38,045 nucleotides of DNA from a virus (taxonomy: Duplodnaviria; Heunggongvirae; Uroviricota; Caudoviricetes): the IMG/VR virus record IMGVR_UViG_2534681663_000013, positions 1-38,045 of that record; one strand, 5' to 3'. Positions within the stretch are counted from its first letter, which is position 1. Each line of letters begins with the position of its first letter. This document shows, in pieces, positions 13,089 through 25,680 of the stretch. Under the pieces are notes generated by a model. That model saw only the letters and a list, made by a program, of their open reading frames with translations, was not told the origin of the DNA and made no database searches. Made by a program: the position numbers and the translations under genes.

Positions 13089-13250
13089 ACTTTATGGTGT
13101 CATAAACTTAAATCTAGCGCCGGGTAGAACAAGTTAATCGAACGATGTAGCGGCCATTTAGGCGTTACAGAAAGAACAGAATTTTAAATTTATAGTGAAG
13201 CCGTTGCAGCAACTTTGTGGGGTGCAACCAACACTGAACAGGAAAAGAAA

Positions 13251-15680
13251 ATGGATCATAGTGTACATAACAAGCTCATCTCATTTATATGGAACATTGC
13301 CGACGACTGTTTACGTGATGTGTACGTTCGCGGTAAGTACCGCGATGTGATTTTACCTATGGTGGTATTACGACGTTTAGATACGTTACTTGAACCCACC
13401 AAAGAAGCCGTGCTTGAAGAGGTCAAGTTCCAAAAAGAAGAGATGCAAGCCACGGAGCTTGATGATGAACCATTGAAGGCGGCTAGTGGTTATGTTTTTT
13501 ACAATACATCTAAATGGACCCTGAAATCCCTGTTCAATACCGCAACGAATAACCAACAGATATTACTCGCCAACTTTGAAGAGTACCTGCTTGGCTTTAG
13601 CGATAATGTTAAAGAAATCATTGAATGCTTTAACCTCAAGTCGCAAATTCGTCACATGGCCTCAAAGCAAGTCCTTCTTGATGTCGTCGAAAAGTTTGTT
13701 TCCCCTTACATCAACTTAACTCATGAAACGGTCGAAGACCCAGATGGCAACAAGATGCCAGCCCTTACTAACCTGGGTATGGGGTACGTGTTCGAAGAGT
13801 TGATCCGTAAGTTCAACGAGGAGAATAACGAAGAAGCCGGTGAGCACTTTACACCTAGGGAAGTGATTGAGCTGATGACACACTTGGTTTTTGACCCAGT
13901 GAAAGAGCAGCTACCATTGACCATGACCGTTTACGACCCTGCGTGTGGTAGCGGTGGTATGCTCACTGAATCTCAAAACTTCATTGAAGAGAAATACCCG
14001 AACGACAGCCGAGATATTTACCTTTACGGCAAAGAGATCAATGACGAGACCTACGCGATTTGTAAATCGGACATGATGATCAAAGGTAACAACCCTGAGA
14101 ACATCAAGGTAGGCTCAACCTTGTCTACCGACGAGTTTGCGGCTTCACGCTTTGACTTTATGTTGTCTACCCCGCCATACGGTAAGAGTTGGGCGTCTGA
14201 ACAGAAGTACATTAAAGACGGCAGTGATGTGATTGACCCGCGTTTTAAGGTTAGCCTGAAAGACTATTGGGGAAATCTCGAAGTGGTGGATGCCACGCCA
14301 CGTTCGAGTGATGGCCAGCTGCTTTTCTTAATGGAAATGGTCAACAAGATGAAAGATCCGAGCGTAAGTCCATTAGGCAGCCGGATTGCCTCTGTTCATA
14401 ACGGCTCATCGCTCTTTACCGGTGATGCGGGCGGTGGCGAAAGTAATATTCGTCGCTTCATCATTGAAAACGACATGCTAGATGCCATCGTTCAGTTACC
14501 TAATAACCTGTTCTATAACACTGGCATTACCACTTACATTTGGGTGTTGAGCAACAATAAACCTGAGGCGCGTAAAGGTAAGGTGCAATTAATTGATGCC
14601 AGCTTGCTCTACCGTAAGTTGCGCAAGAACTTAGGTAACAAAAACTGCGAATTTGCGCCTGAGCACATCACGGAAATTACCGATACTTACCTCGCGTGTA
14701 AGGATGTTGAAAGAGCACTGGATGCAAACAATGATCCTGTTGGCATCGCCAGTAAGGTATTCAGCAATGACGATTTTGGCTACTACAAAGTCACTATCGA
14801 GCGCCCAGATCGCCGCAAAGCCAAGTTTACTCAAGATGCCATAGCCCCACTGCGTTTTGATAAGCAACTTAGTGAAGTGATGGAGTACGTGTACGCAGAG
14901 CACGGCGAACGTGTTTACGAAAAAACTGGCTACGGGTCAGATCAGAAAAAGAGCTTCTTAAAATCCATCGAGAAAGACATTATTTCTTGGTGTGAAGATA
15001 ACGACATCAGTCTCAATGCTAAGGCTAAGGCCAAACTGCTTGATGTGAAACACTGGCTGGCGCTAAAAGCATTGCTTGAAACTGCACAAACGCTGATGGC
15101 TGACATCGGTAGCATTGAATTTGATGACTTCAATAGCTTTAAAACCCAAGTTGATAAATCGCTAAAAGCCCATGCTATTAAGCTTTCAGCACCTGAGAAA
15201 AATGCCATTCTTCACGCGGTGAGCTGGTATGACGAAACCGCCAAGAAAGTGGTTAAAAAGGTAGTTAAATTAACAGGTGATAAATTAAACGACCTGCTGG
15301 AGCGCTATGAGTGTGAAGTCGCTGACTTGCCAGATTTTGGTTATTACCCCGTTCCTTCAGCAGAAGGCGGTAAAAAAGGCGAGTATATCACTTACGAGAC
15401 CAATTCAGACCTGCGAGATACAGAATCTGTTCCATTAAAGCAAAGCATTTACCAGTACTTCCTAGATGAAGTGAAGCCTCATGTCGATGAAGCATGGATA
15501 AACCTAGATACGGTAAAAATTGGCTATGAAATCAGCTTCAATAAGTATTTCTACCGTCATAAACCGCTGCGTAGTTTAGAAGAGGTCACAACCGACATTA
15601 TCAACCTAGAACAAAAAGCCGAAGGTCTTATTGCGCAGATATTGGGTGTGAACGTGACGGAAGTTCAGGGAGAAGCCTAA
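13251..15680 (+). CDS. hsdM: Type I restriction-modification methyltransferase subunit HsdM (long form, ~810 aa)
   Basis: AdoMet motif YDPACGSGGML, catalytic TPPYG motif, and the conserved HsdM C-terminal segment (LPNNLFYNTGITTYIWVL). Start taken as ATG 13251 with RBS AGGAAAAGAAA. Confidence 0.85.
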   Translation: MDHSVHNKLISFIWNIADDCLRDVYVRGKYRDVILPMVVLRRLDTLLEPTKEAVLEEVKFQKEEMQATELDDEPLKAASGYVFYNTSKWTLKSLFNTATNNQQILLANFEEYLLGFSDNVKEIIECFNLKSQIRHMASKQVLLDVVEKFVSPYINLTHETVEDPDGNKMPALTNLGMGYVFEELIRKFNEENNEEAGEHFTPREVIELMTHLVFDPVKEQLPLTMTVYDPACGSGGMLTESQNFIEEKYPNDSRDIYLYGKEINDETYAICKSDMMIKGNNPENIKVGSTLSTDEFAASRFDFMLSTPPYGKSWASEQKYIKDGSDVIDPRFKVSLKDYWGNLEVVDATPRSSDGQLLFLMEMVNKMKDPSVSPLGSRIASVHNGSSLFTGDAGGGESNIRRFIIENDMLDAIVQLPNNLFYNTGITTYIWVLSNNKPEARKGKVQLIDASLLYRKLRKNLGNKNCEFAPEHITEITDTYLACKDVERALDANNDPVGIASKVFSNDDFGYYKVTIERPDRRKAKFTQDAIAPLRFDKQLSEVMEYVYAEHGERVYEKTGYGSDQKKSFLKSIEKDIISWCEDNDISLNAKAKAKLLDVKHWLALKALLETAQTLMADIGSIEFDDFNSFKTQVDKSLKAHAIKLSAPEKNAILHAVSWYDETAKKVVKKVVKLTGDKLNDLLERYECEVADLPDFGYYPVPSAEGGKKGEYITYETNSDLRDTESVPLKQSIYQYFLDEVKPHVDEAWINLDTVKIGYEISFNKYFYRHKPLRSLEEVTTDIINLEQKAEGLIAQILGVNVTEVQGEA

Positions 15681-16987
15681 TGGAAAGTTTAGCTTTGATG
15701 CCGAAGTATGAGGCTTATAAAGATTCTCAGGTTCAATGGATAGGTGATATACCAGCCAACTGGCATCTGGAAAAGGCTAAGTGGCTGTTTTATAAAGCAG
15801 ATAGAAAGCCTCTCGTTGATGATGATATCGTCACTTGTTTCCGAGATGGGCAAGTTACGTTGAGAAAAAACAGAAGGACTGAGGGGTTTACTAATGCTTT
15901 AAAAGAGCATGGTTATCAGCGTATTTGTAAAGGGGACTTAGTTATCCATGCAATGGATGCCTTTGCAGGAGCGATAGGTGTCTCTGATTCTGATGGAAAA
16001 TCAACACCAGTATATGCAGCATGCGTCCCAAGAAAGATAGGCAAAGTTAATTCATATTATTATGCCTACTATATGCGTGATTTGGCTCTGTCAGGCTTCA
16101 TTGTGTCGCTTGCGAAAGGAATTAGAGAGCGCTCAACAGATTTTCGGTTTAATGATTTTGCAGAATTATTATTACCGTTTCCGGATTATGAAGAGCAAAC
16201 CCTAATAGCCAACTTCCTCGACAAGAAAACCGCTCTAATCGACGAAGCGATTTCGATCAAAGAGCAGCAAATTAGCCTGCTGAAAGAGCGTAAGCAGATC
16301 ATCATCCAACAGGCGGTGACCCAAGGGCTTGATCCCAATGTGCCAATGAAAGACTCCGGTGTGGATTGGATTGGTAAGATTCCAGCGCATTGGGATATTG
16401 TGCCAGGATTTACAGTATTTAAAGAGGGAAAAGACTCGAACAAAGGGATGATTGAATCACAAGTTTTATCTCTCAGTTATGGAAATGTTATTATAAAACC
16501 AGAGGAGAAATTGGTTGGGCTTGTACCTGAGTCTTTTGAAACGTATCAAATAGCTTTACCTGGCGACATCATAATACGTTGTACAGACTTGCAAAATGAC
16601 AAAACGAGCTTGAGAACGGGGATAGTGCGGAATAAAGGAATTATAACTAGTGCTTACCTTAACTTACGGTTGAAAACGGAACATTCAGCTGAATTTATGC
16701 ATTATTTTCTTCATGTATTAGATATAACTAAAACTATATATCGTTTTGGTTCTGGGCTGAGACAAAACTTGAGTTATAAAGATTTTAAGCATATGAGAAT
16801 ATTGATGCCTCCTAAAGCAGAGCAAATTGAAATAGTAAATTACATCAATAATCAAGTAGAAATGACTGAGTCATCTATTGATCTGATTAAAAATAAAATA
16901 GAAAAACTAAAAGAATATAAAACCACCCTGATCAACAGCGCCGTGACAGGAAAAATAAAAATCACCCCAGAAATGGTTGAGCAATAG
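15680..16987 (+). CDS. hsdS: Type I R-M specificity subunit HsdS (two target-recognition domains)
   Basis: Duplicated conserved HsdS segments (PDYEEQTLIANFLDKKTALIDEAI and PPKAEQIEIVNYINNQVE). Start overlaps the hsdM stop (TAATGG). Confidence 0.85.
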   Translation: MESLALMPKYEAYKDSQVQWIGDIPANWHLEKAKWLFYKADRKPLVDDDIVTCFRDGQVTLRKNRRTEGFTNALKEHGYQRICKGDLVIHAMDAFAGAIGVSDSDGKSTPVYAACVPRKIGKVNSYYYAYYMRDLALSGFIVSLAKGIRERSTDFRFNDFAELLLPFPDYEEQTLIANFLDKKTALIDEAISIKEQQISLLKERKQIIIQQAVTQGLDPNVPMKDSGVDWIGKIPAHWDIVPGFTVFKEGKDSNKGMIESQVLSLSYGNVIIKPEEKLVGLVPESFETYQIALPGDIIIRCTDLQNDKTSLRTGIVRNKGIITSAYLNLRLKTEHSAEFMHYFLHVLDITKTIYRFGSGLRQNLSYKDFKHMRILMPPKAEQIEIVNYINNQVEMTESSIDLIKNKIEKLKEYKTTLINSAVTGKIKITPEMVEQ

Positions 16988-16996
16988 GACGCGAAT

Positions 16997-18160
16997 ATGT
17001 TCACGGTAAATCATCAAACCAACAGGATTAGTCCTGTTAGGACAAAGAAGTTCAGTGAGTTGGGCTTTACTGAGCGCAAGCATCTTCAGGAGTGGTTGGC
17101 ACACGAACCTTCCGCATTGGGTGAAGAGTTGTTGATTATTCAAAAAGAGTTCGATGGCTTTGATGACACCCGTGAACGATTAGATTTACTGGCACTGGAT
17201 AAAGATGGCAACTTGGTCATTATTGAAAATAAGCTGGACGACAGTGGCCGAGATGTGGTGTGGCAGGCCCTTAAATATGCCTCTTACTGTGCCAGTTTAA
17301 CCAAAGCACAAATAGTTGACATTTACCAGCAGTACTTAGACCGCTATGAGCCTGTAACAGCAGAGGTTGACCTGTTAAATGCCCCTGCAAGTGCCTCAGC
17401 TAGAATATGTGAGTTTTTGGATGCGCCCGATCTGGATGAGTTAAAGCTCAACCTGGGTAACAGCCAGCGCATTATGTTAGTTGCGGCAAACTTTCGCAAA
17501 GAAGTGACCAGCACCGCGCTGTGGTTATTGGGTCAAGGAATTAGCATTGCCTGCTTCAAAATCACGCCTTATTCACTGGGTGAACAGCTACTGATTAATA
17601 TTGACCAGATCATCCCAACGCCGGAAGCGAAAGAGTTGATGATCGGCATTAATGCCAAGGAAGCGGAAGAAAAAACCACCGAAGTGGTACTAAAAAACCG
17701 CCATACGGTGCGGCGCGAATACTGGGAGCGTGCCTTAGAGGCGTTTCAGAAAAGCGCTTGCCAACTCTATAACAACATTAGCCCAAGCAAAGATCATTGG
17801 TTATCAGCAGGCTCAGGGTTAAGTGGGTGTCCGTATAACCTGATATTTCTGCAAAAAGAGCTTCGAGTAGAGCTTTGGATCAGCCGTGGGGTTACCGAAG
17901 AGAATAAATACCTTTTTGACTTGTTGAGTCAGTCCAAACAGGACATTGAACATACTTTTGGTGCAGAACTTGAGTGGATGAGGCTGGATGAGAAGAAATC
18001 TTGCCGTATTCAGTTTTCGACCAAAGCTGATGGGTTTAACAAAGATACGTGGCCCCAAGCGGTTGCGTGGCACTTAGAGCAGATGACAAAGTTAGAAAAA
18101 GCCTTAAAAGGACCGCTGCAAAAAGCGGCTGAGGCAATGAAACAGAAGAATTTTGATTAA
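16997..18160 (+). CDS. Hypothetical protein with N-terminal PD-(D/E)xK nuclease-like motif, embedded between hsdS and hsdR
   Basis: 387 aa. Motif ...RERLDLLALDKDGNLVIIENKLDD fits the D-x(n)-ExK pattern. Same strand and tight spacing with the hsd genes. Confidence 0.6.
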   Translation: MFTVNHQTNRISPVRTKKFSELGFTERKHLQEWLAHEPSALGEELLIIQKEFDGFDDTRERLDLLALDKDGNLVIIENKLDDSGRDVVWQALKYASYCASLTKAQIVDIYQQYLDRYEPVTAEVDLLNAPASASARICEFLDAPDLDELKLNLGNSQRIMLVAANFRKEVTSTALWLLGQGISIACFKITPYSLGEQLLINIDQIIPTPEAKELMIGINAKEAEEKTTEVVLKNRHTVRREYWERALEAFQKSACQLYNNISPSKDHWLSAGSGLSGCPYNLIFLQKELRVELWISRGVTEENKYLFDLLSQSKQDIEHTFGAELEWMRLDEKKSCRIQFSTKADGFNKDTWPQAVAWHLEQMTKLEKALKGPLQKAAEAMKQKNFD

Positions 18161-18174
18161 GGGAACTTACAATT

Positions 18175-21100
18175 ATGGTCAGTCAAACCAATGAACAAGC
18201 ATTAGAGTCGGCCATTGAGAAATGTCTGGCTGGGATCAGTACTGAAGAGCTCAAAGAGGGGCTGAGTCAGCAGTCACTGGGTGCTGGATACTTCATTGGT
18301 GCTGCTAGTGACTTTAATATGCAATATGCCATTGATGAACGTTTTTTCTGGCAATTTCTGCAAAAGACACAAGAAGTAGAGTTGGCCAAACTGCAAAAGA
18401 ACAACCCCTCAGATTGGCAGCGTAAGTTACTCGAACGATTTGACCGATTGATTAAGAAGCATGGCATTCTTCATTTACTTAAGAAAGGGCTAAGCGTAGA
18501 CGATGCTCACTTCAATTTGCTCTATCCAGCCCCTTTGGCAAGTAGTAGTGAGAAGGTAAAGCAAAACTTTGCAGATAACGTGTTTAGTTGTACTCGCCAA
18601 GTGCGCTATTCCATGGTAAATCCCCTACAAGAAATCGACATGGTATTGTTTATCAACGGAATACCCTTGATAACGCTGGAGTTGAAGAACGCATGGACCG
18701 GGCAAACAGCACGTTATCACGGCCAAAAGCAGTATCGAGATGATCGGGATGCAACTCAGCCATTGCTGACCTTTGGCCGCTGCCTAGTGCATATGGCGGT
18801 CGATACCGACGAAGTGTATATGACCACCAAGTTATCAGGTAGCAGTACATTCTTCTTGCCGTTCAATAAAGGTCACAATCTTGGACAAGGCAACCCGCCG
18901 AATCCATCTGGCCATAAAACGGCATACCTATGGCAAGAAGTATTCACTAAAGACAGCTTGGCGAATATTATTCAGCATTTTGTGCGTCTGGATGGGTCAA
19001 GCAAAGATCCATTACCAAAGCGAACCCTGTTCTTTCCTCGATACCATCAATTGGATGTGGTGAGAAAATTAGTAGACCATGCCGCCCAGCACGGTGTCGG
19101 TCAGACTTACTTAATTCAACACTCAGCCGGTTCAGGTAAGTCTAACTCGATTACCTGGGCAGCTTATCAGCTAATTGAAACCTATCCTGCTTCGTCTGAT
19201 GTGGCAGGCGGAAAAAGCTTGGAGCAGCCGTTGTTTGACTCTGTGATTGTGGTCACCGATAGACGCCTATTGGACAAGCAGCTGCGGGATAACATTAAAG
19301 AGTTTTCTGAAGTAAAGAACATTATTGCCCCAGCGAATAAGTCTTCTGAGCTTAAGCAGGCGCTGGAGAATGGCAAAAAGATTATTATAACGACGATTCA
19401 GAAATTCCCGTTCATTATTGATGGTATCACCGATCTTAGTGACAAGCGCTTTGCAGTGATCATCGATGAAGCACACAGCTCACAGTCTGGTTCGGCGCAT
19501 GACAATATGAACCGAGCGATGGGCAAGTCTGAAGTCGAAGAGGCAGAAGATGCTCAGGATAAAATCCTTCAGGCGATGAGATCGCGTAAGATGCGCGGGA
19601 ATGCGTCGTACCTGGCATTTACAGCGACACCAAAAAACAGCACTTTGGAGAAATTTGGTCAACGCCAAGAAGATGGCTCTTAAAAGCCGTTTCACTTGTA
19701 TTCGATGAAACAAGCCATTGAAGAAGGCTTCATCTTGGATGTGCTGGCAAATTATACGACGTACAAAAGTTATTATGAGATTGAGAAATCAATTGCTGAT
19801 AACCCTGAGTTTGATACCAAAAAGGCGCAGAAAAAACTCAGAGCTTATGTAGAACGAAGCCAGCAAACAATTGATATCAAGGCAGAGATTATGCTGGAGC
19901 ATTTTGTTCCGCATGTCGTGAATACGAAAAAGCTCAAAGGTAAAGGTAAAGGAATGGTGGTCACTCAAAATATTGAGGCGGCCATTCGATACTACAAAGC
20001 GATAAGGCGAATACTTGAGGAGCAAGGAAACCCGTTTAAAGTTGCCATTGCTTTCTCAGGAACCAAAGAAGTTGATGGTATTGAATATACCGAAGCAGAT
20101 ATTAATGGTTTTGCCGAGTCAGATACCAAAGATATGTTTGATACCGATGAGTATCGACTTTTAGTGGTTGCTAACAAGTATCTGACTGGGTTTGACCAGC
20201 CTAAGCTTTGCGCCATGTATGTAGATAAGAAGCTCGCCAGTGTCTTGTGTGTTCAGGCGCTATCTAGGCTCAATCGCAGTGCACCTAAGCTAGGGAAGAA
20301 AACAGAAGACTTGTTTATCCTGGATTTTTTCAACTCGGTTGAAGATATTCAATCAGCATTCGATCCTTTCTATACAGCAACGTCATTGTCCCAAGCTACA
20401 GATATAAACGTACTGCACGAGTTGAAAGATGAAATGGACGATGTCGGTGTGTACGAGTGGTATGAAGTTGAAGACTTTGTGACGCGTTATTTCAAGAATG
20501 AAGACGCCCAAACACTCAGTCCAATCATTGATATTGCCGCAGCGCGGTTTGACCATGAACTAGATCTTGAAGCTGAAGCTAAAGTGGACTTTAAGATTAA
20601 AGCCAAACAGTTCGTTAAAATCTATGGGCAGATGGCTTCTATCATGCCTTATGAAATGGTCAGCTGGGAAAAACTGTTTTGGTTCCTGAAGTTTTTAATA
20701 CCGAAATTGAAAGTGGAAGATCCCGATGCTGATGCTATTGATGAGCTTCTCGATTCTGTCGATCTGAGTTCATACGGTTTGCAACGTGTGAAGCTTAACC
20801 ACAGCATTAAACTTAGTGACCAAGAAGCGGAGCTTGATCCTCAAAATCCGAACCCACGTGGGGTGCATGGCGGTGAAAAAGAAACTGACCCGCTGGATGA
20901 AATCATTCGCACATTTAATGAGCGATGGTTCCAGGGCTGGAGTGCCACACCTGAAGAGCAAAAGGTTAAGTTCGTGAACATCGCTGAAAGTATCCGCAAT
21001 CACCCTGACTTCGAATCGAAATACAAAAACAACCCAGATCCCCATAATCGAGATTTGGCCTTCGAAAAAATGCTCAAGGAAATCATGCTGCAACGCCGTA

Positions 21101-21192
21101 AAGATGAACTTGAGCTCTACAAGTTGTTCGCAGGAGATTCAGCATTTAAAGCCTCGTGGACGCAAAGTATGCAACGAATGGTGGGTAGGTAG
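18175..21192 (+). pseudogene. hsdR: Type I R-M restriction subunit HsdR interrupted by an in-frame TAA at 19681-19683
   Basis: ORFs 18175-19683 and 19696-21192 share one frame. Helicase motifs I (SAGSGKSNS), II (IIDEAHSS) and III (FTATPKNS) lie before the stop, and the conserved segment KQAIEEGFILDV follows directly after it. Confidence 0.8.
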
Positions 21193-21584
21193 AAAGGAGT
21201 GATGGTTTGCTGAAGGCAGTCTCAGAGTTATTAGGTGGGTCACCAGGCCTGAAAGGACGTCAAATTGCCAAGGAGCTGGGGCTGGTCAGCTGTCAGCAGC
21301 CGACTCACCGGTATAAACGTGGTGGTCATGAACATGTTGCTATCCCTAACTACCTTGAACGGCAGTTCGCCGTGACCGAGCCAAATCAGGTGTGGTGCGG
21401 TGATGTGACCTATATCTGGACGGGTAAGCGCTGGGCGTACCTCGCCGTTGTTCTCGACCTGTTCGCAAGAAAACCAGTGGGCTGGGCCATGTCGTTCTCG
21501 CCGGACAGCAGGCTCACCATGAAAGCGCTGGAAATGGCATGGGAAACCCGTGGTAAGCCCGGCGGGGTGATGTTCCACAGCGAT
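21193..21584 (+). mobile_element. IS3-family (IS911-like) transposase OrfB remnant, truncated after the HSD of the DDE core
   Basis: Translation ...[65 protein letters not shown] matches IS911-type OrfB as recalled. Homology stops at ~21584, with no orfA or downstream orfB. Confidence 0.7.
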
Positions 21585-21589
21585 AGTAA

Positions 21590-23040
21590 TAATGCCGATG
21601 TCAGTCTTTACCACCACTTAGTTTGCCGTTTAACCAGATTGGTGTGATTACTGATGCAGTGAAGACCTTCCCGCATCCTGACTCACACAGCGATCGACCT
21701 TTTGTGTCCTGCCCTGGACCCGTCGGTTGCCGGAAGCGCCTTCATGCGAGGCATCTCCTCACCGATGCGCGTGACTCAAGAAGGGCCTGACGGCTTGTCT
21801 CGTTACTGTCCTGTCCGGGTTATCTGTCTGGAGATTCAACTCTGTTTCCTCACAGGAGCTCTGTCATGGTTGATAAAGTTACCGAAGCTGCCGTTGTGGG
21901 TGGCGTGGATACACATAAAGATTTGCACGTTGCCGCTGTCGTAGATCAGAACAATAAAGTCCTTGGGACTCAGTATTTCTCCACAACACGACAAGGTTAC
22001 CGGCAGATGCTGGCATGGATGACCTCGTTTGGGACATTAAAGCGAATTGGTGTTGAGTGCACAGGTACCTATGGTTCCGGTTTGCTTCGTTATTTTCAGA
22101 ACGCCGGGTTAGAAGTTCTTGAGGTGACTGCTCCAGACCGGATGGAGCGACGCAAACGGGGTAAAAGTGACACAATTGATGCTGAATGTGCCGCTCATGC
22201 AGCATTCTCAGGCATCAGGACAGTTACTCCCAAAACGCGTGATGGCATGATTGAGTCCCTGCGGGTATTAAAAACTTGCCGAAAAACAGCAATATCAGCC
22301 CGCAGAGTCGCTCTCCAGATTATCCATTCAAATATTATCTCTGCCCCGGATGAATTACGTGAACAGCTCAGAAATATGACGCGCATGCAGCTCATCAGGA
22401 CCCTGGGTTCCTGGAGACCTGATGCCAGTGAATACCGCAATGTAACCAACGTTTATCGCATTTCATTAAAGTCCCTTGCCCGACGCTATCTCGAGTTACA
22501 TGACGAAATCGCTGATCTGGATGTCATGATTGCGGCAATTGTCGACGAGTTGGCACCTGAGCTGATTAAACGTAATGCTATCGGATACGAAAGCGCTTCA
22601 CAGTTGCTGATCACTGCCGGAGACAATCCTCAACGGTTAAGATCAGAATCAGGATTTGCGGCACTGTGTGGTGTCAGCCCGGTCCCCGTTTCTTCTGGAA
22701 AAACGAACCGTTACCGACTTAATCGTGGTGGAGATCGTGCTGCAAATAGTGCACTTCACATCATCGCCATCGGACGCTTACGAACTGACGCAAAAACAAA
22801 GGAATATGTCGCCAGGCGTGTAGCCGAAGGACATACAAAAATGGAAGCGATACGCTGTCTAAAGCGATATATCTCCCGCGAAGTTTACACGTTACTGCGC
22901 AATCAAAACAGGCGGATCAACAGTATCCCGATAACAGCTTGACTCTTAGAAGGGCGTCCAGGGCAGTCATTAGGTTCGTTTACAACAAATCGGGTGATGT
23001 ATACGGCGTTCACGCGAAGAACGACAGCTACCTTTTCGAT
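21590..23040 (+). mobile_element. IS110-family insertion sequence (ends approximate)
   Basis: Single DEDD-type transposase gene with ~280 bp of non-coding sequence upstream and ~100 bp downstream. Boundaries inferred from where IS911 homology stops and the next gene starts. Confidence 0.55.
21866..22942 (+). CDS. IS110-family (DEDD) transposase
   Basis: N-terminal RuvC-like motif VVGGVDTHKDLHVAAVVD and the typical C-terminal IS110/IS116/IS902 transposase domain (...SESGFAALCGVSPVPVSSGKTNRYRLNRGGDRAANSALH...). Confidence 0.9.
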   Translation: MVDKVTEAAVVGGVDTHKDLHVAAVVDQNNKVLGTQYFSTTRQGYRQMLAWMTSFGTLKRIGVECTGTYGSGLLRYFQNAGLEVLEVTAPDRMERRKRGKSDTIDAECAAHAAFSGIRTVTPKTRDGMIESLRVLKTCRKTAISARRVALQIIHSNIISAPDELREQLRNMTRMQLIRTLGSWRPDASEYRNVTNVYRISLKSLARRYLELHDEIADLDVMIAAIVDELAPELIKRNAIGYESASQLLITAGDNPQRLRSESGFAALCGVSPVPVSSGKTNRYRLNRGGDRAANSALHIIAIGRLRTDAKTKEYVARRVAEGHTKMEAIRCLKRYISREVYTLLRNQNRRINSIPITA

Positions 23041-23273: not shown

Positions 23274-23280
23274 TAACACT

Positions 23281-23880
23281 ATCCACTGCGGTGAGTAGCC
23301 AGCTCACCGCGTGTGAATCCGGCTCATAACCACTGTAGCGAGTAGAACACCCTTCAGGTATGCACCCCAACCACTGTAGTGAGCAAACCCTCTGCCACGA
23401 TATCAACTATCCACTGTAGTGAGTAAATTGGTGATTATCGGGGTCGCTATACACTGTAGTGAGTAAACAGGCGTTCACTGACTACAAACAACCACTATAG
23501 AGAGTGATGGAATGCCCCCTCCAGCGGATATCCACTATGGAGAGTAAATCTTCGCTGTTTTAAACGGATATCCACTCACTACAGTGGATAGAGGTCAAGT
23601 CAGCCAATTCTGCTCTTCACAGTGGATAGTCAACAATGAGGAGAGCGACGATAACCGCTGTAGAGAGTAGACTTAACAGAGATACCCAGTGACCGCTAAC
23701 CTCTCAGCCCTTGTTTTATCTATGTTTGCAACCACTAACATTTACTTCGCGATTTGTGCGCACTGCCTACAGTGGTTATTCTTCGGTTTCTTTTACTCAC
23801 TACAGTGGATATTGCATTTCCGATAAACAAAAAGGCTCACTATCTACTGTAGTGAGCCTTTTTACTCTCTACAGTGGTTG
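23281..23880. repeat. Iteron array (~14 copies of a ~17-19 bp CCACTGTAGTGAGTA-like repeat, both orientations) downstream of repA; incA-like copy-control locus
   Basis: Reiterated degenerate repeats (atccactgtagtgagtaa, aaccactatagagagtga, tccactcactacagtggata, and others) with irregular spacing. Confidence 0.8.
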
Positions 23881-23882
23881 GG

Positions 23883-24938
23883 CTATTTGCGAGCCTTTGC
23901 CTTGCGCAGCTCTTCGAGAATCGCCAGTTCTTCCTTGCTCAACATGACCATTTCCCCGTCTTTTTCTTCAGGGGCAACATCGATAATGTCCTCCGGATCA
24001 TCACCTGGCAAGATATCTTCTGGCTCTTCAGGCGTAGCCATAGATGGCGGCAGTGCCGAACGTAACTTCGGCCGTCTATAGTGGATGACGAAGTAGACCG
24101 AGCTGCCGCGTTTCACTTCAGTGTAATCGAGATAGCCGATCTCTCGCAGCTGCTCCATCGCCTTCCTGACTGTCGCATTCTGGGTAATGGTGCGGCTGGT
24201 TAAGTTAAGTCTGGCGCGTAAGCGAGCCAATGAGATTGGCGCCGGGTCTGGTGGCAAACTTTCAATGAAGGTGTAGAGCGCCTGCGCGGATTCCTTTCTG
24301 GAGAGTTCGTTGATGGCCCGAAGTTGCAAAAGCACCTTTTTGTCGAACTGGTAAAGTTCGAAAATCTTAGGATCGGCCTTCAGTTCGACCGTGTCATTCT
24401 TGGTACTGTACTTTGCCGTCTGCACAAGGTGCGTAACGTAATACTCTTCAGAGCCTTTGCTGCGGAATGAGATGGTGTTTGTGGCGATACGACTTAGAGA
24501 GCTGTCCAGGCGCTTACGTAACTTCGCGGACGATCTGGCTGTTGGTATGCCACAAAGTCTGACGAACTCGACGAACGGCAACGTGACGGTGTCACCAACA
24601 ACCTTGTGCTTGGCGAACGCGTGGATGATGCCCACCCATGTTTTGAAATCGTTATCCATATCAAGACGAAGACCAGCAATCCTTATATCCTCGTACCCTT
24701 CGGCTTTGGCCAGAGACAGCTGTTTGAGTTCAGCGGAGGCGTCCATAGAGACCATTTGCCCCTTTCTACCCCTGGATGTCGATTTCAGCGTCGGAACGAA
24801 GAGACCAAGACGCATCAGAGCAACAGGCTGAACTGTGTTGTTGGTGTTAGGAACTAACGTAACAACTTCGCCGGTCTTTTTGTCTGTTTCGGAAAATGCT
24901 TCGCTTATCGCAATGTTTTTATTGTCGTTTACGCTCAT
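23883..24938 (-). CDS. repA: Plasmid replication initiator RepA (P1 RepA / RepFIB-like)
   Basis: Signature segments [51 protein letters not shown] and LYTFIESLP match P1-type RepA as recalled. Flanked by iterons. Confidence 0.9.
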
Positions 24939-24974
24939 TCCAAATGTCTCTTTTTATTCGACGGCTTGGGTGCC

Positions 24975-25105
24975 TTTACTGATTACAGTGGATAGTAGCA
25001 CCCATCACAGTGGTTATCCTACCGCCTACAGCGGTTTTTCTACTCTCCATAGTGGTTGATTTACTCTCTATAGTGGTTGTTCTTCTCACTATAGTGGATA
25101 TCGAT
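24975..25105. repeat. Origin-proximal iteron cluster (6 direct copies of CTMYAGTGGWTR-like repeat) immediately upstream of repA
   Basis: Same repeat family as 23281-23880, all in one orientation. Position matches the oriR/incC iterons of P1-type replicons. Confidence 0.8.
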
Positions 25106-25147
25106 AACCTCTAAAGCCATGTGGCACAACGGTTTGCAGGGGCCGGG

Positions 25148-25220
25148 GATCTCTTTGGGTCTTTGTGGTTCTCTTTGGTTCTAACAGGGATCTGAATTAC
25201 TGGATCGGGCCTGTGTATAA
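25148..25220. promoter_or_regulatory. Origin-like module 1: 3 GATC sites plus a DnaA-box match (TGTGTATAA, rc TTATACACA)
   Basis: GATC at 25148, 25189 and 25203. DnaA-box consensus TTATNCACA matched at 25212-25220. Confidence 0.5.
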
Positions 25221-25379
25221 AAATCAGATAATTACAAAATCAGGCATCACTCCCCTTCTGGGGATAATGTGTGATCGAAATAAACACGCCGCAACGCAAA
25301 ATTTACAATATTTCCAAGAATATCAGCCATCTGCCGCAGAAAAACAGGCTCGGAGTTATCCAGTTAAAACATTGTCTCC

Positions 25380-25495
25380 TACTCACTACAGTGGATACCG
25401 ACTACTCTCCAGAGAGGTTGTTTTGCTCTTCATAGCGGTTATTATGCTCTCTACAGTGGTTATTTTGCTCCCTATAGTGGATAGTAACCCCTTCT
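25380..25495. repeat. Third iteron cluster (about 5 copies)
   Basis: cactacagtggatac, cttcatagcggttatt, ctctacagtggttatt and cctatagtggatag, same family as the other two clusters. Confidence 0.75.
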
Positions 25496-25523
25496 CAAGC
25501 CAGTAACCGCAAGCGCTGGAGAC

Positions 25524-25595
25524 GATCGGGGATCTCTTTTGATCTTCTGTAGGATCTCTCTGGGGATCTAAATATTGGATCGGGCCTGTGAATAA
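25524..25595. promoter_or_regulatory. Origin-like module 2: 6 GATC sites in 58 bp plus a DnaA-box match (TGTGAATAA, rc TTATTCACA)
   Basis: GATC at 25524, 25531, 25541, 25553, 25565 and 25578. DnaA-box match at 25587-25595. Parallel to module 1 (shared string TGGATCGGGCCTGTG). Confidence 0.6.
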
Positions 25596-25680
25596 AGTGA
25601 ATAAGTAAACAGGCATTTGCAAACTCCGGTGCGCCTTATCCGTTATCGTTGCCCCGGACAAAATTATTTGAACAAGAATT

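Follow-up and report, generated by a model that had tools for sequence, protein, structure and literature searches.

The iteron replicon of phage P1 (IncY) is annotated, in order, as a DnaA site, five Dam sites, five incC iterons that carry the promoter PrepA, the initiator gene repA, and nine incA iterons. RepFIB, the replicon of F, P307 and pO157, likewise has an origin with iterons (BCDD'D'') upstream of its repA and control iterons (E-K) downstream. The pO157-type RepFIB has a single upstream module made up of one DnaA box, five GATC sites and five iterons, and IncFIB(K) also has a single origin module. Here we analyze a replicon that keeps the P1 order of parts but, unlike P1, pO157-type RepFIB and IncFIB(K), carries two origin modules in tandem, 375-383 bp apart. 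It lies within a 38,045-nt stretch of DNA, hereafter the window, which is the record IMGVR_UViG_2534681663_000013 of IMG/VR (positions 1 to 38,045), assigned to a virus of the Caudoviricetes. An original prediction, made from the letters of the window alone, had proposed a P1-type RepA replicon in which the usual single unit of iterons, GATC sites and DnaA box was duplicated. Our analysis upheld both the assignment to the P1 type and the contrast with the single unit of P1, pO157-type RepFIB and IncFIB(K), and it traced the duplication through a large group of related plasmids and phage-plasmids.

Two paralogous modules upstream of repA

Local alignment of 24940-25300 with 25330-25680 revealed 72% identity over 253 columns, with a score of 124 compared with 18.6±2.5 for shuffled sequences, so that the tandem duplication is real and the two modules are paralogous. 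An independent repeat search likewise returned repeat families offset by 363-403 bp across the two modules. Read in the direction of repA, which is encoded on the minus strand, each module consists of one or more DnaA boxes, a run of AGATCC-type heptamers, a GC-rich spacer, and a set of phased iterons.

The proximal module (module 1) begins next to repA with six direct iterons in 24975-25105, starting at 24979, 25001, 25022, 25043, 25064, and 25085 in a 21-22 bp register. All six predicted copies were found, the one at 25022 being degenerate. The iterons (24979-25100) end 37 bp from the repA ATG, and this region is presumed to be the operator and promoter region of repA. The GC-rich spacer of module 1 (25106-25139) separates the iterons from the heptamers; it is paralogous to 25486-25519, and its position matches the gap between iterons and Dam sites in the annotated P1 oriR. 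The heptamer region (25140-25211, minus strand) reads CGATCC, AGATCC, AGAACC, AGAACC, AGACCC, and AGATCC in the repA direction. Half of these six heptamers therefore retain GATC, giving the three proposed sites (25148, 25189, and 25203), while the other three are without a Dam site. The three non-GATC heptamers are conserved in Salmonella phage SSU5, Yersinia pestis plasmid pMT1, Escherichia phage Cyrano, and pAMPD1. The module is completed by the DnaA box TTATACACA (25212-25220, minus strand), an exact fit to TTWTNCACA; Cyrano and pAMPD1 have TTATCCACA at the homologous position.

The distal module (module 2) also had every predicted part in place. Its five direct iterons (25378-25485) start at 25382, 25405 (a weak copy), 25426, 25447, and 25468 in a 21-23 bp register and are followed by a GC-rich spacer (25486-25519) in which GCGGTTACTGG is invariant in the family alignment. 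The heptamer region (25520-25586, minus strand) contains six GATC sites, at 25524, 25531, 25541, 25553, 25565, and 25578. These six sites (25524-25581) are invariant in five family members, and they form the only cluster in the whole window with at least five GATC within 70 bp, against a background of 4.4 GATC per kb. Beyond them lie tandem DnaA boxes (25587-25604, minus strand), TTATTCACA at 25587-25595, again an exact fit to TTWTNCACA, and the weaker TTATTCACT at 25596-25604. P1 has AGATCC-type heptamers and a tandem pair of boxes as well, made up of TTATCCACT and TTATCCACA. Given that TTWTNCACA occurs across the window at chance level (four found, 3.85 expected), the case for both DnaA boxes rests on their homologous positions in the two modules and on their conservation in relatives.

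A search of the 38-kb window for the 16-nt iteron core CTCWCTAYAGTGGWTA, allowing up to three mismatches and using 100 shuffles as control, found 26 matches compared with 1.04 expected, and none of the 100 shuffles reached 26. All but two of the matches fall in 23280-25483, including one within repA. In addition to the two upstream sets, these matches mark a downstream array at 23280-23880, the counterpart of P1 incA and RepFIB E-K. The approximately 14 incA-like iterons of mixed orientation that had been proposed to follow repA were recovered there by pattern and position weight matrix (PWM) scans as 14 strong copies and one weak copy, at a spacing of about 40-41 bp. About half of the iterons (for example 25382-25397) terminate in CAGTGGATA. 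Its reverse complement, TATCCACTG, is similar to the DnaA box TTATCCACA, and for this reason DnaA-box scans with relaxed settings catch iterons in several loci.

The gene that presumably supplies the protein for these sites, repA (24938-23883, minus strand), is an open reading frame (ORF) of 351 codons for a Rep_3-family initiator, annotated as RepA in plasmids that are 99.8% identical. Its product matched the Pfam domain Rep3_N above the cut-off (E = 2.4e-11) and Rep3_C weakly, just under the cut-off, whereas searches against NCBIfam and PDB sequences gave no matches. RepA is 46% identical to P1 RepA over the shared length, 53% to IncFIB(K) RepA, 60-63% to RepFIB RepA, and 78% to the RepA of a Rahnella plasmid. 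Together with the order of parts, these matches show that the replicon belongs to the P1 RepA/RepFIB kind of iteron replicon. Across related loci, the iteron consensus shifts lineage by lineage, and it does so jointly in the distal, proximal, and downstream arrays, which argues that one RepA reads all three.

Conservation and age of the duplication

Over 2.5 kb, the replicon region is 99.8% identical to IncFIB-typed plasmids of Escherichia coli with sizes of about 95-115 kb, among them p1585m1_B; IncFIB is also the MOB-suite type of the close relatives. Identity to SSU5 is 89% across the entire 2.5-kb query, that to pMT1-type plasmids of Y. pestis is about 90%, and that to Cyrano is 79%. The closest plasmid encodes a phage terminase, a DnaB-like helicase, and similar genes, and these genes together with the identity to SSU5 identify the region as the plasmid-maintenance (prophage-state) replicon of a phage-plasmid of the SSU5/pMT1/pHCM2 type. 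The genes beside the replicon, a Cra-like ORF and an ASCH-domain ORF, are conserved in named members of the SSU5/pMT1 type. We take the Salmonella Typhi plasmid pHCM2 to belong to the same group from its published description alone.

The original prediction had called the two-module layout unusual, but the comparison with related replicons revealed that it is the norm in this family. SSU5, Y. pestis pMT1, Cyrano, and pAMPD1 all have both modules at identical distances. In PLSDB, 334 records cover at least 80% of an 801-bp query taken from the upstream region, a figure that accounts for virtually every one of the 324 records with an identity of at least 80%. We then located iteron clusters by PWM scan in 84 RepA loci, comprising reference loci and 80 species-representative loci with RepA proteins 61-95% identical to that of the window. 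Two upstream clusters were present in 55 of the 84, from the genera Kluyvera, Buttiauxella, Yersinia, Rahnella, Erwinia, Pantoea, Franconibacter, Phytobacter, Xenorhabdus, and Tolumonas. In a RepA tree built by neighbour joining, all of these two-module loci group into one clade. Outside this clade, with one module each, are P1, IncFIB(K), a Klebsiella phage-plasmid, RepFIB-like loci, and a second Pantoea group (L073-L089).

The duplicate nature of the upstream region was also evident away from the window. The proximal and distal halves are clearly paralogous in several other surveyed loci (z = 9-33), and a Pantoea agglomerans plasmid carries two textbook copies of the module. The offset between the iteron clusters spans about 244-398 bp across the clade, so that the two modules need no fixed geometry. 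Expanded proximal arrays of eight or nine irregularly spaced iterons were seen in L045, a Tolumonas metagenome-assembled genome (MAG), and in L014 from Franconibacter, the latter with mixed orientation as well; L045 has in addition a third, small iteron cluster between its two modules.

For an arrangement this widespread, the simplest reading of the alignments and the RepA tree is one old tandem duplication of the whole origin module in the ancestor of the RepA clade, with both copies retained. The duplication is judged old because the paralogues are only 72% identical. For a recent duplication specific to this element, an assembly artefact, or a chance clustering of short motifs, the single module of P1 is the sole point in favour. 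That explanation is refuted and keeps next to no probability, given that the arrangement recurs in distant genera and in independent assemblies that number in the hundreds, that the paralogues have diverged so far, and that the motif counts greatly exceed those of shuffled controls.

The RepFIB-like group L068, L069, L071, and L072, whose RepA proteins are about 61-63% identical to that of the window, has one complete module located about 230 nt upstream of the rep start. We considered whether the leader of about 230 nt in L069 and L072 holds the relic of a lost proximal module and rejected this: the similarity of the leader to either module is at most marginal (z = 0.7-3.7), compared with z = 22.4 for the loci's own module against module 2.

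Both copies have not only persisted but have been constrained. As a neutral yardstick we used the four-fold degenerate sites of repA, which are 62.7% identical between the window and Cyrano. In the same comparison, identity is 85.9% for the module 1 iterons, 84.6% for the module 1 DnaA box and heptamers, 83.3% for the module 2 iterons, and 74.4% for the module 2 DnaA boxes and heptamers, with all six GATC sites of module 2 invariant. The inter-module spacer (25231-25377), in which no conserved feature was found, is 61.2% identical to Cyrano, which is the neutral rate. Judged by these rates, both modules are under purifying selection and evolve more slowly than neutral sequence, while the spacer evolves neutrally. 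A 113-codon ORF at 25165-25506, which starts in the core of module 1, reaches into the iterons of module 2 and is listed as a hypothetical protein in CP044300, is probably no gene, because it lies mostly on the neutrally evolving spacer, a stretch with 1-bp indels in Cyrano.

We could not find a two-module origin described in the searchable literature on RepFIB, SSU5, pMT1, pHCM2, Pantoea plasmids, and P1, and an earlier description is possible, for example in older work on pMT1 or RepFIB. The sequence itself is common in databases and the P1/RepFIB kind of replicon is known, but the conserved tandem duplication of a complete origin cassette is apparently undescribed.

Proposed roles of the two modules and the downstream array

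The model that we prefer, and hold with middling confidence on comparative grounds, is a division of labour in which the distal module would be the main origin, the proximal module a repA operator with origin-like features, and the downstream array a copy-control element. The two modules differ in what the clade has kept. Of the 55 two-module loci, 54 have five to seven GATC sites in the distal module, and 51 have a DnaA box there with no more than one mismatch. The GATC count of the proximal module, by comparison, ranges from zero to six; ten of the 55 loci have no more than one, their heptamers having decayed while their iterons were kept near the repA start. The distal copy is also the one that retains P1-like tandem DnaA boxes. 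When the module 2 core (the heptamers, the adjoining DnaA boxes, and the GC spacer, 25497-25605) and the corresponding stretch of module 1 were each compared with the cores of single origins, module 2 matched about twice as well, including in the comparison with single-module Pantoea plasmids. The similarity scores for module 2 and module 1 were 55 and 27 against P1, 90 and 35 against IncFIB(K), and 72 and 38 against the Klebsiella phage-plasmid. The retention of GATC sites and DnaA boxes in the distal module and its likeness to single origin cores favour it as the principal origin.

According to this model, RepA bound to the five distal iterons and DnaA bound to the tandem boxes would open the heptamer region of the distal module (25378-25604). 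After firing, by analogy with P1, SeqA would sequester its six hemimethylated GATC sites. The proximal module (24975-25220), directly upstream of the repA start codon, would serve for autoregulation, with RepA on its six iterons repressing repA, and its conserved DnaA box and half-methylatable heptamers may give it an auxiliary or back-up role as an origin. The 14-15 downstream iterons, like P1 incA and RepFIB E-K, would titrate RepA and handcuff with the upstream iterons, thereby setting copy number and incompatibility. Two other functions considered for module 2 were rejected, namely regulation of the adjacent ASCH gene and service as a lytic origin; the module is retained in non-phage plasmids with different neighbouring genes.

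Several observations weigh against this division of labour. No functional study of the replicon was found in the searchable literature, and the roles of the modules are assigned by comparison alone. The core of module 1 is better conserved between the window and Cyrano than that of module 2 (84.6% compared with 74.4%), and module 1 is therefore no decaying relic. In L056, a Buttiauxella MAG, the proximal module is complete and the distal module has decayed, a reverse loss which indicates that either copy can serve as the sole origin. The module adjacent to repA is the origin in P1 and, by anatomy, in pO157-type RepFIB. Profiles of GC/AT composition and nearest-neighbour duplex stability do not discriminate between the modules, the least stable stretches lying just outside each DnaA box and in the inter-module spacer. 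Finally, no confident position could be given to the repA promoter: the best candidate, TTTAGA-16-TATAGT on the minus strand at 25115-25088, is a consensus match only (9 of 12 positions), and five such matches were found compared with 3.1±1.6 in shuffled sequences.

One of these points, the position of the origin beside repA in P1 and pO157-type RepFIB, could also be taken to mean that the proximal module is the origin here. The distal module would then act in negative control or titration: its additional iterons, DnaA boxes, and SeqA sites would reduce copy number by handcuffing or sequestering the true origin, in the manner of the accessory iterons of RK2 oriV. In line with this, within the SSU5 group the proximal core is better conserved than the distal one, and loss of an accessory iteron from RK2 oriV raises copy number (PMC11983097). 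We nevertheless consider it quite unlikely. Ten lineages without a proximal GATC/DnaA core still have a complete distal module; a pure control element would have no need of a full DnaA box, heptamers, and GC spacer, which are intact in 54 of 55 loci; and the copy whose core resembles known single origins is the distal one.

The loss in L056 bears on another explanation, that the two modules are redundant origins of the P1 type, both competent, either of which can fire. In this case module 1, with three of its six heptamers free of GATC, would be less dependent on Dam and less subject to SeqA sequestration, and the pair would broaden the range of hosts or conditions under which initiation occurs. 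Each module has every part of the P1 oriR and is under purifying selection, and in module 1 conservation extends to the heptamers that lack GATC. In many plasmids of Pantoea and Rahnella, both modules have four or five GATC sites and a good DnaA box. The proximal core has been lost in ten loci and the distal module in L056, as expected if either suffices. The losses are, however, strongly asymmetric (ten proximal, one distal), and the module 1 iterons would also have to serve repA autoregulation, which might interfere with firing. On balance we regard redundant origins as a tentative explanation that deserves to be taken seriously but is probably incorrect. A more specific version, in which two functional tandem origins respond differently to Dam and SeqA, one fully methylatable at its six GATC sites and the other only half so, with three GATC sites and three conserved AGAACC/AGACCC heptamers, appears rather unlikely. 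If it were true, a clade of enterobacterial plasmids that includes pMT1, SSU5-type phage-plasmids, and large plasmids of Pantoea and Erwinia would pick its site of initiation by host, growth rate, or methylation.

The downstream array differs from both upstream modules in its plasticity. Among E. coli plasmids at least 99% identical, all length differences in the replicon sit in this array, and upstream a constant 743 bp separates repA from the next gene. The differences occur in steps of about 41 bp (-40, +41, +83, and +164 bp), giving 14-19 PWM matches (23280-23560 in the window; loci L090-L093), and the run of units in the same orientation comprises five to ten units among near-identical plasmids. 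Such plasticity fits a copy-number-setting element, a role that our preferred model would give to the array. In RepFIB, the downstream iteron block alone displaces a resident plasmid and the upstream block does not, which is consistent with handcuffing (PMC11983097).

The assignment of origin and incompatibility functions has consequences beyond the window. The Y. pestis virulence plasmid pMT1 is maintained by this replicon, as are phage-plasmids of the SSU5 type from E. coli, Salmonella, and Enterobacter; diverged forms of the replicon maintain large plasmids of Pantoea, Erwinia, and Rahnella. Which block acts as origin and which as incompatibility determinant matters for plasmid-curing cassettes, for replicon typing, and for copy-number shifts of phage-plasmids that carry resistance; in published work on FIB curing, the choice of iteron block was critical (PMC11983097). 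With lineages available that lack either half, the clade also constitutes a natural experiment in the duplication of an entire origin and the division of labour between its copies.

Surrounding features and comparison with known systems

A likely intrinsic terminator for repA lies within the downstream array at 23829-23863 (minus strand), with the hairpin GGCUCACUA...UAGUGAGCC followed by UUUUUGUUU. The hairpin is built of an iteron-like inverted repeat, and the centroid of its fold is -20 kcal/mol (z = -3.9 relative to shuffles). T-runs flank the hairpin on both sides, so that it may act bidirectionally. The iteron match at the hairpin (23841) is on the minus strand in the window and on the plus strand at the corresponding site of p1585m1_B. 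An Rfam search returned only a chance-level match to RsaJ (24.7 bits, compared with a gathering score of 100). The single iteron-like site within repA is in its 3' part, at 24072-24087 (PWM score 16.4, three mismatches to the core), over the codons for VIHYRR. A homologous intragenic core is present in the repA genes of SSU5, Cyrano, pMT1, pAMPD1, and the Rahnella plasmid, and its conservation may be due merely to that of the protein.

On the left, the replicon is directly adjoined by an IS110-family transposase gene (21866-22942; Pfam DEDD_Tnp_IS110 and Transposase_20), and farther out an ORF at 21207-21647 looks like a transposase fragment. Collinearity with p1585m1_B begins only at 22971; of the small ORF that precedes the Cra-like gene, only about the last 40 codons therefore seem to remain. 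The annotation of matching plasmids places a type I restriction-modification gene set next to the replicon (13215-21192); in it, the adjacent ORFs 18175-19683 and 19696-21192 could both derive from the R-subunit gene, which would then be split.

Among known systems, SSU5, pMT1, and E. coli plasmids of the pLF82 type carry the same replicon, with 89-99.8% nucleotide identity over 2.5 kb, three iteron clusters, and both modules; they differ from the window in point substitutions and in the number of downstream 41-bp units only. The likeness to P1 extends to a homologous initiator. Apart from the number of modules, the replicon differs from P1 in the sequence of its iterons, in a downstream array of 14-15 iterons of mixed orientation compared with nine in P1, and in the C-terminal extension of its 351-residue RepA, which P1 RepA does not have. 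RK2 oriV resembles the present replicon in having more initiator-binding clusters than a minimal origin needs, with the extra iterons controlling copy number; iteron 10 of RK2 is such an accessory iteron (PMC11983097). In RK2 the accessory clusters consist of iterons only, whereas here the whole cassette, with DnaA box, heptamers, and GC spacer, has been duplicated. Iteron systems with several clusters include RK2 oriV itself, with 5+3+1 iterons, R6K with its alpha, beta, and gamma origins, and chromosome II of Vibrio cholerae, with ori plus incII. Both the resemblance and the difference noted for RK2 hold for R6K and V. cholerae chromosome II as well.

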